Shown piece after piece: positions 600-26,874 of a stretch of DNA of 64,000 nucleotides. The position numbers were made by a program, and so were the translations under genes. Source of the stretch: Escherichia coli (GTDB taxonomy: Bacteria; Pseudomonadota; Gammaproteobacteria; Enterobacterales; Enterobacteriaceae); assembly GCF_036507355.1 (NCBI RefSeq), contig NZ_AP027877.1. The stretch is one strand, 5' to 3'. Position 1 is the stretch's first letter. Each line of letters begins with the position of its first letter. The notes below the pieces were generated by a model. That model worked only from the letters and a program-made list of their open reading frames with translations, did not search any database and was not told where the DNA came from.

Positions 600-1583
600 A
601 TGCCTAAAAAAATGAGAACAACCCGTAATCTATTATTAATGGCTACGCTATTAGGTAGCGCTTTATTTGCCAGGGCTGCGGATAAAGAAATGACCATTGG
701 CGCAATATACCTTGATACTCAGGGATATTACGCTGGAGTGCGTCAGGGCGTTCAGGATGCGGCAAAAGATTCTTCAGTACAGGTACAGTTAATTGAAACT
801 AACGCCCAGGGTGATATTTCGAAAGAAAGTACCTTTGTTGATACCCTCGTGGCGCGTAATGTCGATGCTATTATTTTATCGGCAGTGTCTGAAAATGGCA
901 GTAGCCGTACCGTTCGTCGCGCCAGTGAAGCGGGTATTCCGGTGATTTGCTACAACACCTGTATTAATCAAAAGGGTGTCGATAAATATGTCTCGGCATA
1001 TCTGGTGGGTGACCCGCTGGAATTTGGTAAAAAACTGGGTAACACTGCCGCCGATTATTTTATTGCCAACAAAATTGACCAGCCGAAAATTGCCGTCATC
1101 AATTGCGAAGCCTTTGAAGTTTGTGTGCAGCGACGTAAAGGATTTGAAGAAGTATTAAAATCCCGCGTTCCCGGCGCGCAAATTGTCGCTAATCAGGAAG
1201 GGACTGTTTTAGATAAAGCGATTTCCGTTGGTGAAAAACTGATTATCTCCACGCCGGATCTCAACGCCATTATGGGGGAATCGGGCGGTGCGACACTCGG
1301 CGCGGTAAAGGCGGTACGTAATCAAAATCAGGCCGGAAAAATTGCTGTTTTCGGTTCGGATATGACCACTGAAATTGCTCAGGAGCTGGAAAACAATCAG
1401 GTGCTGAAAGCGGTAGTGGATATTTCCGGTAAGAAAATGGGCAATGCTGTTTTCGCGCAAACATTGAAAGTTATCAATAAACAAGCCGACGGTGAAAAAG
1501 TGATTCAGGTGCCTATCGATCTCTATACCAAAACGGAAGACGGTAAACAGTGGCTGGCAACGCACGTTGATGGTCTGCCCTAA
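600..1583 (+). CDS. yphF: ABC transporter periplasmic sugar-binding protein
   Basis: 327-aa ORF with signal peptide, AGGAGG 7 nt upstream of ATG; periplasmic binding protein fold; synteny. Confidence 0.9.
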   Translation: MPKKMRTTRNLLLMATLLGSALFARAADKEMTIGAIYLDTQGYYAGVRQGVQDAAKDSSVQVQLIETNAQGDISKESTFVDTLVARNVDAIILSAVSENGSSRTVRRASEAGIPVICYNTCINQKGVDKYVSAYLVGDPLEFGKKLGNTAADYFIANKIDQPKIAVINCEAFEVCVQRRKGFEEVLKSRVPGAQIVANQEGTVLDKAISVGEKLIISTPDLNAIMGESGGATLGAVKAVRNQNQAGKIAVFGSDMTTEIAQELENNQVLKAVVDISGKKMGNAVFAQTLKVINKQADGEKVIQVPIDLYTKTEDGKQWLATHVDGLP

Positions 1584-4204: not shown

Positions 4205-5266
4205 ATGAAAACGATGCTGGCAGCTTATTTACCAGGAAATTCGACCGTCGATCTGCGGGAAGTTGCGGTGCCGACGCCGGGGATTAACCAGGTACTGATC
4301 AAAATGAAATCCTCCGGAATTTGCGGAAGCGATGTCCACTATATTTATCATCAACACCGCGCCACGGCGGCGGCGCCCGATAAACCGTTATACCAGGGAT
4401 TTATCAACGGTCATGAACCGTGCGGGCAAATTGTGGCGATGGGGCAAGGCGGTCGCCATTTTAAAGAGGGCGACCGCGTGCTGGTGTATCACATTTCTGG
4501 CTGTGGTTTTTGCCCGAACTGCCGCCGCGGTTTTCCTATTTCTTGTACTGGCGAAGGAAAAGCGGCTTACGGCTGGCAGCGTGACGGCGGTCATGCCGAA
4601 TATCTGCTGGCGGAAGAAAAAGATCTGATCCTCCTGCCGGATGCGCTGAGCTACGAAGATGGCGCGTTTATCAGTTGCGGCGTTGGCACAGCGTATGAAG
4701 GGATCTTGCGCGGCGAAGTTTCCGGCAGTGATAACGTGTTGGTGGTTGGTCTGGGGCCGGTCGGCATGATGGCGATGATGCTGGCGAAAGGTCGCGGTGC
4801 AAAACGGATCATCGGCGTTGATATGCTGCCGGAACGTCTGGCGATGGCAAAACAGTTAGGGGTGATGGATCACGGCTATTTAGCGACCACCGAAGGTCTG
4901 CCGCAGATAATTGCTGAACTTACCCACGGTGGCGCGGATGTTGCTCTTGATTGTTCAGGTAATGCCGCAGGTCGCTTGCTGGCACTGCAATCCACTGCTG
5001 ACTGGGGGCGGGTGGTTTACATTGGTGAAACCGGAAAAGTGGAATTCGAGGTCAGCGCCGATCTGATGCACCATCAACGGCGGATTATTGGCTCCTGGGT
5101 GACCAGTCTGTTCCATATGGAAAAATGCGCCCACGATTTGACTGACTGGAAGCTGTGGCCGCGTAACGCCATTACCCATCGCTTCTCGCTGGAACAGGCA
5201 GGTGATGCCTATGCGCTGATGGCGAGCGGCAAATGCGGAAAAGTTGTGATTAACTTCCCGGATTAA
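4205..5266 (+). CDS. yphC: Zn-dependent alcohol dehydrogenase family oxidoreductase
   Basis: MDR/ADH-like ORF (GHE, Cys-rich zinc site, GLGPVG Rossmann motif); start chosen at SD-preceded ATG giving 353 aa. Confidence 0.88.
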   Translation: MKTMLAAYLPGNSTVDLREVAVPTPGINQVLIKMKSSGICGSDVHYIYHQHRATAAAPDKPLYQGFINGHEPCGQIVAMGQGGRHFKEGDRVLVYHISGCGFCPNCRRGFPISCTGEGKAAYGWQRDGGHAEYLLAEEKDLILLPDALSYEDGAFISCGVGTAYEGILRGEVSGSDNVLVVGLGPVGMMAMMLAKGRGAKRIIGVDMLPERLAMAKQLGVMDHGYLATTEGLPQIIAELTHGGADVALDCSGNAAGRLLALQSTADWGRVVYIGETGKVEFEVSADLMHHQRRIIGSWVTSLFHMEKCAHDLTDWKLWPRNAITHRFSLEQAGDAYALMASGKCGKVVINFPD

Positions 5267-23490: not shown

Positions 23491-24774
23491 ATGACAGAAG
23501 CGATGAAGATTACCCTCTCTACCCAACCTGCCGACGCGCGCTGGGGAGAAAAAGCAACTTACAGCATTAATAATGACGGCATTACCCTGCATTTGAACGG
23601 GGTAGACGATCTGGGGCTGATCCAGCGTGCGGCGCGCAAGATTGACGGTCTGGGCATCAAGCATGTTCAGTTAAGCGGTGAAGGCTGGGATGCGGATCGC
23701 TGCTGGGCATTCTGGCAAGGTTACAAAGCCCCGAAAGGCACGCGTAAAGTGGAGTGGCCGGATCTGGACGATGCCCAGCGACAGGAACTGGATAACCGCC
23801 TGTTGATCATCGACTGGGTGCGTGACACCATCAACGCACCGGCGGAAGAGCTGGGGCCATCGCAACTGGCACAGCGTGCTGTTGATCTGATCAGCAACGT
23901 CGCAGGCGATCGTGTGACTTATCGGATCACCAAAGGCGAAGATCTGCGTGAGCAAGGTTATATGGGGCTGCACACCGTCGGACGCGGTTCAGAACGTTCT
24001 TCGGTATTGCTGGCGCTGGATTACAACCCAACTGGCGATAAAGAAGCGCCAGTGTACGCGTGCCTGGTAGGTAAAGGTATCACTTTTGACTCCGGCGGCT
24101 ACAGCATCAAACAGACTGCGTTTATGGACTCGATGAAGTCGGACATGGGCGGCGCGGCAACGGTTACCGGGGCGCTGGCATTTGCCATTACGCGCGGACT
24201 GAACAAGCGCGTGAAGCTGTTCCTCTGCTGTGCGGATAACCTGATTAGCGGCAATGCGTTCAAGCTGGGCGATATCATCACCTATCGCAACGGTAAAAAA
24301 GTTGAAGTGATGAACACTGATGCCGAAGGGCGTCTGGTGCTGGCCGATGGTCTGATTGATGCCAGTGCGCAGAAACCGGAACTGATCATTGATGCGGCGA
24401 CCCTCACCGGGGCGGCGAAAACTGCGCTGGGTAATGATTATCACGCGTTGTTCAGTTTTGACGATGCGCTTGCCGGTCGTTTGCTGGCGAGTGCCTCACA
24501 AGAGAACGAACCATTCTGGCGTCTGCCGCTGGCGGAATTCCACCGCAGCCAGCTGCCGTCTAACTTTGCCGAACTGAACAATACCGGAAGCGCGGCGTAT
24601 CCGGCAGGCGCGAGCACGGCGGCGGGCTTCCTGTCGCACTTTGTTGAGAACTATCAGCAAGGCTGGCTGCATATCGACTGCTCGGCGACTTACCGTAAAG
24701 CGCCGGTTGAACAGTGGTCTGCGGGTGCTACGGGACTTGGTGTGCGCACGATTGCTAATCTGTTAACGGCGTAA
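23491..24774 (+). CDS. pepB: Aminopeptidase B (M17 leucyl aminopeptidase family)
   Basis: Start [10 protein letters not shown] with AAGGA SD (427 aa); M17 signature NTDAEGRL; ORF track start 23257 is an upstream in-frame extension. Confidence 0.93.
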
Positions 24775-24780
24775 ACTAAT

Positions 24781-24888
<108 letters not shown>

Positions 24889-24916
24889 CCCGAACGTTGA
24901 ATGAATTGTGGTTCTT

Positions 24917-25693
24917 ATGTCCGAAACAAAAAATGAACTTGAAGACCTGCTGGAAAAAGCAGCAACCGAACCGGCGCACCGCCCGGCTTTTTTCCGTACT
25001 CTACTGGAATCCACCGTCTGGGTGCCTGGTACGGCGGCGCAGGGCGAGGCTGTGGTTGAAGAGAGCGCGCTTGATTTACAGCACTGGGAAAAAGAAGACG
25101 GCACCAGCGTCATTCCTTTTTTTACCTCGTTAGAAGCACTTCAACAGGCGGTTGACGGCGAACAGGCATTTGTTGTAATGCCCGTTCGCACATTGTTTGA
25201 GATGACCCTTGGCGAAACGCTCTTCCTTAATGCCAAACTGCCAACCGGTAAAGAATTTATGCCGCGTGAAATCAGTTTGTTGATTGGTGAAGAGGGAAAT
25301 CCGCTGAGCAGTCAGGAAGTACTGGAAGGCGGCGAATCGCTGATATTATCGGAAGTCGCAGAGCCGCCAGCACAAATGATTGATTCACTCACCACCTTAT
25401 TTAAAACCATTAAACCAGTGAAGCGTGCTTTTATCTGTTCAATTAAAGAGAACGAAGAGGCACAGCCTAATTTACTTATTGGTATTGAAGCCGATGGTGA
25501 TATCGAAGAAATTATTCAGGCGGCGGGAAGTGTAGCAACCGATACATTACCTGGCGATGAACCAATCGATATTTGCCAGGTGAAAAAAGGGGAAAAAGGA
25601 ATTAGCCATTTTATTACCGAACATATTGCGCCATTCTATGAACGTCGTTGGGGTGGTTTTTTGCGTGACTTTAAACAGAACCGGATAATCTAA
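24917..25693 (+). CDS. sseB: SseB (enhanced serine sensitivity protein B)
   Basis: ORF MSETKNELEDLL (258 aa); the ORF track start at 24908 is a GTG; synteny next to pepB. Confidence 0.88.
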   Translation: MSETKNELEDLLEKAATEPAHRPAFFRTLLESTVWVPGTAAQGEAVVEESALDLQHWEKEDGTSVIPFFTSLEALQQAVDGEQAFVVMPVRTLFEMTLGETLFLNAKLPTGKEFMPREISLLIGEEGNPLSSQEVLEGGESLILSEVAEPPAQMIDSLTTLFKTIKPVKRAFICSIKENEEAQPNLLIGIEADGDIEEIIQAAGSVATDTLPGDEPIDICQVKKGEKGISHFITEHIAPFYERRWGGFLRDFKQNRII

Positions 25694-25694
25694 A

Positions 25695-26000
25695 ATATGC
25701 CGCCCCAAAGGGCGGCATTCGGGCTTACCTGCTGTTCTGAAGGTTGTTAACCACCAGTAAATTGTTGCCGGAGAGACTCAGGTTATTATTTACCTCGGTT
25801 AACAGCGCACCAGAAACAATAAGTACGATACAAAAGCACCGTATCTTCATTGTGCGGTCCATGCGAAGACCGCATCACGACAGCACCACTGGCGATATTG
25901 CCGCGATAGCAAGCGCTGTGAAACACCTGCATTTACGGCCACGGAACATCCTTTCCTAAAGCCAGCGCCCGTTTGCGAGACGGCGGAAAGGGCCGGTGTC
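25695..26000 (-). ncRNA. ryfA: RyfA-like RNA, copy 1 (mRNA for a small hydrophobic protein); 5' end not determined
   Basis: Minus-strand hairpin gccgccc-tttg-gggcggc plus AUAUUUUA tail at about 25695-25722; location between sseB and sseA as for K-12 ryfA. Confidence 0.5.
25725..25850 (-). CDS. timP: TimP-like small hydrophobic protein, 41 aa (MKIRCFCIVLIVSGALLTEVNNNLSLSGNNLLVVNNLQNSR), copy 1
   Basis: Intact ATG...TAA ORF on the minus strand, below the 60-aa ORF-track cutoff; hydrophobic N-terminus; terminator immediately downstream; weak SD. Confidence 0.5.
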   Translation of the reverse strand: MKIRCFCIVLIVSGALLTEVNNNLSLSGNNLLVVNNLQNSR

Positions 26001-26034
26001 GATAATACGCTAAATAAACAATAATTACTCTCTT

Positions 26035-26063
26035 TTGCTTGACAAAAAGAGAGTTGCTGGCGA
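26035..26063 (+). promoter_or_regulatory. Candidate sigma70 promoter of the divergent sRNA, copy 1
   Basis: TTGACA at 26035-26040, 17-bp spacer, GAATAT at 26058-26063. Confidence 0.4.
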
Positions 26064-26067
26064 ATAT

Positions 26068-26177
26068 TGCTCTGCTGTGAAGCACCTGCGTTGCTCATGC
26101 AACACAAGTCAATCTGCTGGAGAGGCCGCGAACCAAACCGGCAACAAATAACCGCCTGATTTTGGCGGTTTTTTGTT
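26068..26177 (+). ncRNA. TimR/RyfB-like antisense sRNA candidate, copy 1
   Basis: Promoter-like element upstream, terminator ccgcc-tgattt-ggcgg-TTTTTT at 26150-26177; 5' segment complementary to the copy-1 RyfA 5' UTR. Confidence 0.45.
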
Positions 26178-26378
26178 GCTTAAAGAAAGTGAATTTACAT
26201 GTTTAAGTAATATCTTTTACCGGTTAGTATTTTTAATATTGAGCGGGATTTGTTTATATTTGTCTGAATTCGGACTAATAAGCCAGGTCATTTTAATATC
26301 GAACATATTGCGCCATTCTATGAACGTCGCTGGGATGGTTTTTTGCGTGACTTTAAACAGAACCGGATAATCTAAAAT

Positions 26379-26680
26379 ATGCCGCCCCAAAGGGCGGCAT
26401 TCGGGCTTACCTGCTGTTCTGAAGGTTGTTAACCACCAGTAAATTGTCGCCGGAGAGACTCCGGTTATTATTTACCTCGGTTAACAGCGCACCAGAAACA
26501 ATAAGTACGATACAGAAGCACCGTATCTTCATTGTGCGGTCCATGCGAAGACCGCATCAAGACAGCACCACTGGCGATATTGCCGCGATAGCAAGCACTG
26601 TGGGGTGCCTGTATTTACGGTCATGGAACATCCTTTCCTAAAGCCATCGCCCGTTTGCGAGACGGCGAAAAGGGCCATTA
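26379..26680 (-). ncRNA. ryfA: RyfA-like RNA, copy 2; 5' end not determined
   Basis: Second copy of the same terminator hairpin and ORF-bearing block. Confidence 0.45.
26407..26532 (-). CDS. timP: TimP-like small hydrophobic protein, 41 aa, copy 2 (two substitutions relative to copy 1: L24R, N29D)
   Basis: Intact ORF MKIRCFCIVLIVSGALLTEVNNNRSLSGDNLLVVNNLQNSR on the minus strand. Confidence 0.5.
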   Translation of the reverse strand: MKIRCFCIVLIVSGALLTEVNNNRSLSGDNLLVVNNLQNSR

Positions 26681-26756
26681 AGAATAATACTCTCATGTTT
26701 GAATAATTACTCTGTTTATTATCTTGACACAGCCAGGCATAAAAGAGAGTATTTCA

Positions 26757-26862
26757 ACACTGTGGGGTGCCTGCGTTGCTCCGGCAACACAAGTCAACCT
26801 GCTGGAAAGGCCGCGAACCAGACCAGCAATAAAAAACCGCCAAATTCGGCGGTTTTTTATTG
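26757..26862 (+). ncRNA. TimR/RyfB-like antisense sRNA candidate, copy 2
   Basis: TTGACA at 26724-26729; terminator accgcc-aaattc-ggcggt-TTTTTT at 26835-26862 (bidirectional, also serves sseA); 5' segment has a perfect 16-nt match to the copy-2 RyfA 5' UTR. Confidence 0.45.
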
Positions 26863-26874
26863 CCTGTAAAATAC

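Follow-up and report, generated by a model that had tools for sequence, protein, structure and literature searches.

Matched seed and target alleles in two probable tandem timP/TimR toxin–antitoxin modules of Escherichia coli

Introduction

When two closely similar toxin genes stand side by side, each with a small RNA (sRNA) of its own, does each sRNA act on its own toxin messenger or on both? The question arises in a 64,000-nucleotide (nt) stretch of Escherichia coli DNA (contig NZ_AP027877.1 of assembly GCF_036507355.1; hereafter the window), which contains the sseB–sseA intergenic locus of Escherichia and Shigella, where two ryfA/timP toxin genes lie in tandem on the minus strand. An earlier note, drawn from the letters of this DNA, had pointed out an antisense match between each divergent sRNA and the 5' untranslated region (5' UTR) of its own partner, had read the joint change of the two sides as compensatory covariation in a functional RNA–RNA duplex, and had suggested that the two modules are partly orthogonal. 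We find it very likely that the locus holds two tandem, complete timP/TimR (ryfA/ryfB) type I toxin–antitoxin modules, and the duplex reading is supported by complementarity, by the gap in energy that separates cognate from non-cognate pairs and by covariation across species, the pairing itself having been proven in Salmonella (PMC7667032). Both the system and the allele-specific pairing within it had been published and annotated before: the reading is right, and it is not new. Its worth is that of a correct rediscovery from raw sequence, confirming that the eye can pick up covariation of seed and target in tandem paralogues; the biology of timPR, ryfA and ryfB gains nothing new from it, and its modest value lies in a survey of seed types across seven genera and three E. 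coli types, of which the pattern of orphan TimR genes and seed types is the sole part that might merit follow-up.

Results

Two units with matched seeds and targets

Each unit comprises a ryfA RNA, a TimP open reading frame (ORF) and a divergent sRNA gene of ~100 nt with promoter and terminator motifs (Table 1), and in both the 5' end of the sRNA is complementary to stem-loop 2 (SL2) of the toxin mRNA, far upstream of the ribosome-binding site (RBS). Rfam recognizes ryfA twice at full length on the minus strand, with scores to be set against a gathering score of 80, and the 126-nt coding sequence of TimP1, whose ATG start codon lies at 25850–25848 on the minus strand, is the one that RefSeq calls timP in matching E. 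coli genomes.

In unit 1, GCTGTGAAGCACCTGC at 26074–26089 (plus strand) matches GCTGTGAAACACCTGC at 25915–25930 (plus strand) at 15 of 16 positions, the sRNA side lying one to two nucleotides from where the earlier note had placed it (26072–26088). The lone difference, G26082 against A25923, is compatible with G·U pairing, as had been said, since it becomes an sRNA-G·mRNA-U wobble, and the ungapped match reaches 19 nt (25915–25933 and 26074–26092). In unit 2 the two copies of CACTGTGGGGTGCCTG, at 26596–26611 and 26758–26773 (previously given as 26759–26774), are identical. With one mismatch allowed and both strands searched, each 16-mer occurs in the window in just its two places, set against a chance expectation of 0.00 from 100 dinucleotide shuffles. 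Because both copies lie on the plus strand and the toxin mRNA is read from the minus strand, a plus-strand sRNA is complementary to the toxin mRNA, at sites that do lie 65–80 nt upstream of the TimP start codon.

The cores of the two units differ jointly in sRNA and target, being AAACA/AAGCA in unit 1 and GGGTG in unit 2. The sRNA and mRNA of unit 1 form 19 contiguous pairs over sRNA nt 1–19 (17 Watson–Crick and two G·U), those of unit 2 form 16 contiguous Watson–Crick pairs (26596–26611) with one A·C mismatch and three further pairs, and all seven differences between the two sites are transitions. The timP1 and timP2 mRNAs are otherwise close, at 94.1% identity with 18 differences in 307 nt, seven of them within the ~20-nt sRNA site, and are separated by UGUUU against CACCC at mRNA nt 74–78; the published ryfA1/ryfA2 siblings are likewise about 95% identical and set apart mainly by a 5-nt variable region, TGTTT in one and a GC-rich allele in the other. 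The TimR1 and TimR2 bodies are down to 82% identity, while the match of seed and target is still perfect or nearly so.

A three-way compensation can be seen at mRNA nt 74–85 (window 25915–25925 and 26596–26607, numbered from 25998 for unit 1 and from 26680 for unit 2), where the mRNA change G75A has two counterparts, C84U in the stem of SL2 and C10U in the seed of the sRNA, and where U74C converts an SL2 stem pair from U·G to C–G, so that the hairpin and the intermolecular duplex are both preserved.

Cognate and non-cognate pairing

We compared all four combinations of sRNA and mRNA as site-restricted duplexes and as net cofold binding of the 150-nt 5' UTR with the full sRNA; raw RNAduplex runs on long segments were dropped because they gave inflated energies with long interior loops. 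The cognate pairs reach −35.9 kcal/mol (sRNA1 with mRNA1; net cofold −23.5 kcal/mol) and −36.7 kcal/mol (sRNA2 with mRNA2; net −22.5 kcal/mol), against −15.0 kcal/mol for sRNA1 with mRNA2 (net −8.5 kcal/mol) and −24.6 kcal/mol for sRNA2 with mRNA1 (net −9.9 kcal/mol). In these predicted energies, then, the comparison that the earlier note had proposed favours the cognate pair by 11–21 kcal/mol, and each sRNA is predicted to control mainly its own toxin.

The phrase 'partly orthogonal' proves apt, for the two non-cognate pairs are not alike: sRNA2 keeps its register on mRNA1 through G·U pairs, giving an uninterrupted run of 18 pairs of which six are G·U and five of those consecutive (GGGGUG against GUGUUUC), whereas sRNA1 on mRNA2 is broken at five positions, four of them A·C/C·A mismatches within the variable core and the fifth at mRNA nt 69. 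This asymmetry arises because all seven site differences are transitions, which permit wobble in the one direction, sRNA2 with mRNA1.

Covariation across Enterobacterales

Species-representative genomes were scanned with a 17-base degenerate pattern, giving 19 usable Enterobacterales loci among the matches listed; about 100 of the 120 listed loci were chance matches in GC-rich genomes, and the species sample is thus incomplete, with neither Salmonella nor Klebsiella, for instance, in it. Rfam confirms 18 ryfA copies in these loci, from Escherichia, Citrobacter, Superficieibacter, Yersinia, Rahnella, Erwinia and Pantoea. For 17 of the 18, a sequence on the divergent strand, 61–78 nt upstream of the ryfA 5' end, complements the SL2 site of the same copy and then carries the conserved motif GCGUU and a body resembling that of an sRNA. 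The TimP ORF is kept from Escherichia to Yersinia.

We aligned 18 distinct modules, including the two of the window, in a fixed register. Pairing is possible in 96.1% of duplex cells, against 80.4% with shuffled partners (0 of 500 shuffles reach the observed value) and 27–50% when the register is slid by 1–3 columns. Two-sided changes occur at 11 of 20 pairs (58 cells), so that compensatory covariation, first claimed from two units, is borne out across 18 modules and seven genera. In a 19 × 19 matrix the mean energy is −38.2 kcal/mol for cognate and −23.4 kcal/mol for non-cognate pairs, and for 18 of the 19 mRNAs no foreign sRNA outbinds the resident one; the exception, Rahnella bruchi, has an interaction site identical to that of R. 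victoriana.

Some loci in this sample (numbered L with three digits where coordinates within an extracted locus are given) deserve mention in their own right. Yersinia pekkanenii carries three ryfA/timP copies in one genome (L064 11053–11353, L065 887–1090 and L066 1–185), no two of which share an SL2 variable region and each of which has upstream an sRNA seed that fits it exactly; Escherichia and Shigella are therefore not alone in having several modules with different seeds. In Yersinia similis the ryfA copy (L114 4554–4837) is a fusion in which a TimR body, in reverse complement, is joined directly to the SL2 site, the outcome expected of a deletion between the direct repeats of seed and target; both promoters and stem-loop 1 (SL1) are missing, the TimP ORF is intact, and the Rfam sRNA Ysr224 lies just upstream at 4361–4467. 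We had considered this copy as a toxin without an sRNA and rejected the idea, since it is a promoterless deletion fusion. Finally, the E. coli species representative (L014 ~4542–4572) and Escherichia sp. E1V33 (L076 ~527–557) have a target site of the CACCC type with an A, GCAGACACCCC, that sits opposite a seed C and makes a mid-duplex A·C mismatch, at about −32 to −35 kcal/mol against −37 kcal/mol for the perfect site.

Published counterparts and a proposed mechanism

This tandem pair was described in Shigella dysenteriae by Fris et al. 2017 (PMC5333039) as ryfA1/ryfA2 with divergent ryfB1/ryfB2 of ~100 nt, and the window shares its locus, tandem layout, variable-region alleles and divergent sRNAs: unit 1 corresponds to ryfA2/ryfB2 and unit 2 to ryfA1/ryfB1, with no structural difference. 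The 5-nt variable region was reported there as TGTTT in ryfA2 and as CACCC, CCCCC or CGCGT in ryfA1-like copies, so that timP1 (UGUUU) is of the ryfA2 type and timP2 (CACCC) of the ryfA1 type. The published complementarity between RyfB1 and RyfA1 overlaps this region, at 16 of 18 positions where unit 2 has 16 of 16 contiguous, and overproduced RyfB1 lowered RyfA1 with no significant effect on RyfA2 (PMC5333039). That paper took RyfA for a non-coding sRNA, and both the pairing of RyfB2 with RyfA2 and the action of RyfB2 on RyfA1 lie outside it. RNA-seq evidence for both sRNAs in S. dysenteriae, together with the MG1655 annotation, suggests that both are transcribed here as well.

In Salmonella, Andresen et al. 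2020 (PMC7667032) found that ryfA encodes the toxic membrane protein TimP and that TimR base-pairs through its 5' end with 18 nt of the 5' UTR, as established by compensatory mutants and in vitro translation; they also reported a matching upstream sRNA in every timP-bearing species, with species-specific complementarity. Eleftheraki and Holmqvist 2024 (PMC11228461) mapped the TimR site to SL2, to which the site in timP1 corresponds, and showed that translation requires a pseudoknot between SL1 and stem-loop 3 (SL3), and that this pseudoknot, present in the conformer to which TimR binds, is disrupted by the binding, work that has since been extended to a full structural switch (Eleftheraki 2026, PMC13000454). 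The Salmonella system is like the window in its ryfA RNA and TimP families, its divergent TimR and its SL2 pairing more than 60 nt upstream of the RBS; it differs in having a single module and a TimP reported as 38 amino acids (aa), against two modules and 41 aa here, and the pseudoknot and switch mechanism has been tested solely on Salmonella RNA.

By extension from this literature, expression, toxicity and the pseudoknot mechanism would apply to the window in the following way. Each module would produce a minus-strand mRNA of ~305 nt, with a long structured 5' UTR and the membrane toxin TimP of 41 aa, and a divergent plus-strand TimR of ~100 nt, whose first ~19 nt would pair with the loop and 5' arm of SL2 on its own timP mRNA. 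By homology with Salmonella, pairing would be initiated by the 5' end of the sRNA and the loop of SL2, and TimR binding would open SL2 and destabilize the SL1–SL3 pseudoknot needed for translation initiation; toxin synthesis would thereby be blocked, and mRNA levels could drop too. Specificity would reside in the seed and target alleles, with UGUUU in the mRNA and AAGCA in the sRNA of unit 1, and CACCC and GGGUG in those of unit 2.

A comparable arrangement is formed by zorO-orzO and zorP-orzP of E. coli O157:H7, which are likewise type I modules in tandem: their sRNAs are divergent and non-overlapping, a seed of ~18 nt pairs with the toxin 5' UTR, and the paralogous sRNAs tell the paralogous toxin mRNAs apart. 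Their toxin and RNA families are unrelated to timP/TimR, and where zorO depends on 5' processing and on a standby site, timP is not processed and works through a pseudoknot switch.

Weighing other readings

Several points weigh against the toxin–antitoxin reading or its specificity. That reading may be incomplete for Escherichia and Shigella, where TimP production is uncertain: no translation was detected from a ryfA1 reporter in S. dysenteriae (PMC5333039), and a 2026 study of avian pathogenic E. coli (PMC13188913) reported ryfA phenotypes that arise without need of the peptide, and little effect of deleting timR in E. coli. As to the pairing, the sites in the covariation alignment were located through a complementarity search, which favours structure, though they nonetheless fall at homologous Rfam positions (mRNA nt 63–66) and are anchored by the conserved GCGUU of the sRNA. 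The energy figures take no account of kinetics, nor of how the mRNA's competence to bind depends on the pseudoknot, and the predicted helix of sRNA2 on mRNA1, being continuous through G·U pairs, may leave orthogonality incomplete in that direction.

The first of these doubts can be put as an alternative, namely that RyfA is mainly a regulatory RNA (in stress responses, ompC, fimbriae and virulence) and that RyfB/TimR is an anti-sRNA that titrates or destabilizes its own RyfA sibling, so that the duplex and its specificity would be real and the output would be control of a riboregulator, not of a toxin. Besides the untranslated reporter, the ompC and cell-spread phenotypes of overproduced RyfA1 (PMC5333039) speak for this, as do the peptide-independent phenotypes and the suppression of the delta-ryfA phenotype by an additional timR deletion (PMC13188913). 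Yet both units have an intact 41-aa ORF well over the TimP family cutoff, that ORF is conserved from Escherichia to Yersinia, and toxicity, translation and repression by TimR have all been demonstrated in Salmonella (PMC7667032). We judge a mainly regulatory role unlikely, if by no means negligible, and the two roles are not mutually exclusive.

A second alternative grants the toxins and denies the insulation: one or both sRNAs would repress both toxins, and the difference between units would be neutral drift tolerated through G·U pairing. The 18-pair register of sRNA2 on mRNA1 is what such drift would leave, all seven site differences could have passed through G·U intermediates, and AgrA and AgrB illustrate that a partly matched paralogue can still affect a toxin mRNA (PMC3567139). 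The crossing of RyfB1 (sRNA2) with RyfA2 (mRNA1) in S. dysenteriae was, however, exactly the more permissive of the two predicted non-cognate pairs, and overproduction was nevertheless without significant effect (PMC5333039); sRNA1 on mRNA2 is weaker still, with its core mismatches and that at nt 69; and sampled E. coli genomes with a given toxin type keep the matching sRNA even when another TimR lies nearer (see below). We judge modules without such insulation quite improbable, and hold to the prediction that each sRNA acts mainly on its own toxin.

That the 16–19-mers are inert relics of duplication or of short-patch gene conversion is scarcely credible. Seed and sense target copy are indeed direct repeats ~160 nt apart on one strand, and the Y. 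similis deletion, apparently exactly between such repeats, indicates that they can recombine, but compensatory change at 11 of 20 positions in seven genera, an sRNA 5' end that coincides with the start of complementarity, sRNA bodies that diverged around a preserved match, and the mutational proof of pairing in Salmonella (PMC7667032) all stand against it.

Seed types and orphan TimR genes in E. coli

How far do such alleles vary within the species? We surveyed representatives of the structural classes of the locus, comprising 11 sampled E. coli loci and two other Escherichia species representatives. At least three matched seed types of timP/TimR are present in E. coli, filling either one slot or two (Table 2). 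Which toxin and sRNA types occur together is known from the 11 sampled E. coli loci, while 5,426 complete genomes give counts alone. For the T-type sRNA, a first megablast query found 461 genomes (the K-12 variant shares just a 27-nt exact word with it) and a second 2,020; as the two sets possibly overlap, 2,020 is used as a lower bound. The sRNA counts exceed the toxin counts, and orphan sRNAs are common.

Table 2. Seed types of timP/TimR in E. coli and their counts in 5,426 complete genomes
Type	Toxin mRNA variable region	sRNA seed	Genomes with toxin site	Genomes with sRNA seed
T	UGUUU	GCUGUGAAGCACCUGC	1,970	at least 2,020
C	CACCC	CACUGUGGGGUGCCUG	382	579
G	CGCGU	CGCUGAGACGCGCUUGC	2,909	4,546

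Written as toxin type and sRNA type, the arrangements are T,T with C,C in this window and in 14EC033; T,T with G,G in BroCaecum-55; C,C alone in O157:H7; G,G alone in PRO_A-1474 and T309; and G,G with an orphan sRNA of T type or of a fourth type in 2009C-3133, isolate 68 and a capsule mutant. The K-12 class has a T-type timP, a G-type TimR-like gene, a 19-nt stub of a deleted second timP and a T-type timR by sseA. Every timP has a cognate sRNA somewhere in its sampled locus, at −37 to −45 kcal/mol, against −22 to −34 kcal/mol for non-cognate neighbouring sRNAs, and no intact toxin without a cognate sRNA was found among the sampled E. coli and Escherichia loci. The fourth TimR-like seed, GAGUAGACGAGAUACACUUGCAGUAAUAC, was met beside sseA as an orphan only (L125 ~1021–1066 and L128 ~2225–2270), in loci that hold no timP site to match it; paired with the G-type toxin present there, it reaches −24.6 and −25.0 kcal/mol.

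Of two such sRNA genes in MG1655, it is the distal one, timR (b4811, 2653356–2653455), that is annotated and cognate. The other, a TimR-like gene with no annotation, lies on the minus strand directly beside ryfA/timP, at ~2653678–2653777 of NC_000913.3 (L131 ~679–778, minus strand; also L121 764–862), with timR b4811 320 nt further off. This gene has the promoter TTGACA, 17 nt, GAGTAT, and the same body fold and terminator as timR; its seed is of the G type and does not match the T-type timP of K-12, which binds it at −25.7 kcal/mol as against −35.9 kcal/mol for distal timR. We found no mention of this G-type gene in the literature examined.

One toxin with one cognate TimR and one non-cognate TimR-like gene recalls dinQ-agrA/agrB of E. 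coli, where one toxin has two paralogous divergent sRNAs with complementarity of 25/31 and 30/31 and only the better match neutralizes the toxin (Weel-Sneve 2013, PMC3567139); the dinQ toxin differs from TimP, and its locus is controlled by LexA. The Rfam AgrB model (RF02891) matches the TimR2 body (window 26780–26861, plus strand) at 30.7 bits, which leaves TimR2 outside the family, its gathering threshold being 40, a score that only the TimR-like sRNA of Pantoea latae reaches (L101 1439–1519, plus strand; 40.7 bits). Homology between TimR and AgrA/AgrB was considered and rejected, as the K-12 alignment reflects a shared hairpin-plus-terminator architecture with little sequence identity.

We offer tentatively, as an idea with somewhat less than even chances, that the sseB–sseA locus is a polymorphic two-slot timP/TimR array with at least three to four partly orthogonal specificity types, in which toxins are repeatedly deleted and sRNAs persist. 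If this is true and the orphan TimRs are expressed, they could provide standing immunity against incoming toxin alleles, or alternatively be weak cross-regulators like AgrA, or sRNAs with other targets. Deletions of 'the adjacent timR' may then have hit the wrong paralogue in some strains, and widespread unannotated TimR-like orphans, that of K-12 included, bear on how timR deletions in E. coli are designed and read.

Features of the locus

At ~24.9–27.9 kb of the window the gene order is pepB, sseB, an intergenic stretch of ~1.2 kb, sseA and yfhM. The two units repeat with a period of 682–685 bp; the left end of the duplication takes in 86 nt of the sseB 3' end, and direct repeat D1 (25607–25906 and 26289–26588) is 97% identical between copies. 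The nearest complete E. coli genome, 14EC033, is 99.2% identical across 1,251 nt of the locus; its RefSeq annotation carries 'timP (x2)' and treats the partial sseB as an incomplete SseB pseudogene. The two-unit arrangement of T and C types is rare, with 58 of 5,425 matching genomes at least 95% identical across the entire query.

Table 1. Coordinates of the two timP/TimR units and flanking genes in the window
Feature	Position	Strand	Basis
sseB	24908-25693	+	
timP1 / ryfA mRNA	25692..25996	-	Rfam RF00126, 313.8 bits, 1-296/296
timP1 intrinsic terminator	25718-25697	-	
TimP1 ORF, 41 aa, MKIRCFCIVLIVSGALLTEVNNNLSLSGNNLLVVNNLQNSR	25725..25850	-	NCBIfam NF040796 toxic_TimP, 77.7 bits, cutoff 45
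TimR1 binding site (predicted), SL2 5' arm and loop, mRNA nt 66-84 from 25998	25915..25933	-	
TimR1 promoter, TTGACA, 17 nt, GAATAT	26039..26067	+	promoter scan, TTGACA at 26039
TimR1 sRNA (RyfB2 of Fris 2017), seed nt 1-19 GCUGUGAAGCACCUGCGUU	26074..26174	+	homology to timR b4811
TimR1 intrinsic terminator, then T-run	26150-26170	+	
Duplicated sseB 3' fragment, start of unit 2	26289..26374	+	direct repeat D1
timP2 / ryfA mRNA	26374..26678	-	Rfam RF00126, 315.1 bits, full length
TimP2 ORF, 41 aa, MKIRCFCIVLIVSGALLTEVNNNRSLSGDNLLVVNNLQNSR	26407..26532	-	NCBIfam NF040796, 84.2 bits, cutoff 45
TimR2 binding site (predicted), SL2 of timP2 5' UTR	26596..26615	-	complementarity
TimR2 promoter (inferred), TTGACA, 17 nt, GAGTAT	26724..26752	+	read from sequence
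TimR2 sRNA (RyfB1 of Fris 2017), seed CACUGUGGGGUGCCUGCGUU	26758..26858	+	O157:H7 copy, MG1655 timR alignment
TimR2 terminator hairpin	26826-26863	+	
sseA	from 26875	-	

The 5' end of timP1 mRNA is homologous to that of annotated MG1655 ryfA (b4440), and the 5' end of TimR1 is identical to the start of annotated timR b4811, GCUGUGAAGCACCUGC, which is preceded by the same promoter architecture. TimR2 is 100% identical to the O157:H7 copy and alignable with MG1655 timR; its transcription probably starts at A26759, and its −10 element, GAGTAT, is that of the MG1655 timR promoter, a consensus promoter scan of the window having made no call for it. The binding sites lie in predicted local hairpins of −10.9 kcal/mol (timP1) and −9.2 kcal/mol (timP2).

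Two further Rfam matches lie in this region. IS128, a predicted E. coli sRNA, matches at full length on the minus strand at 26132–26342 (228.6 bits), antisense to the TimR1 terminator, and extends over the spacer between the units and into the sseB duplicate; the match may reflect no more than the bidirectional terminator, with no separate RNA. Sub-threshold naRNA4/REP-like matches between pepB and sseB, at 24769–24813, are probably an ordinary REP (repetitive extragenic palindromic) repeat.

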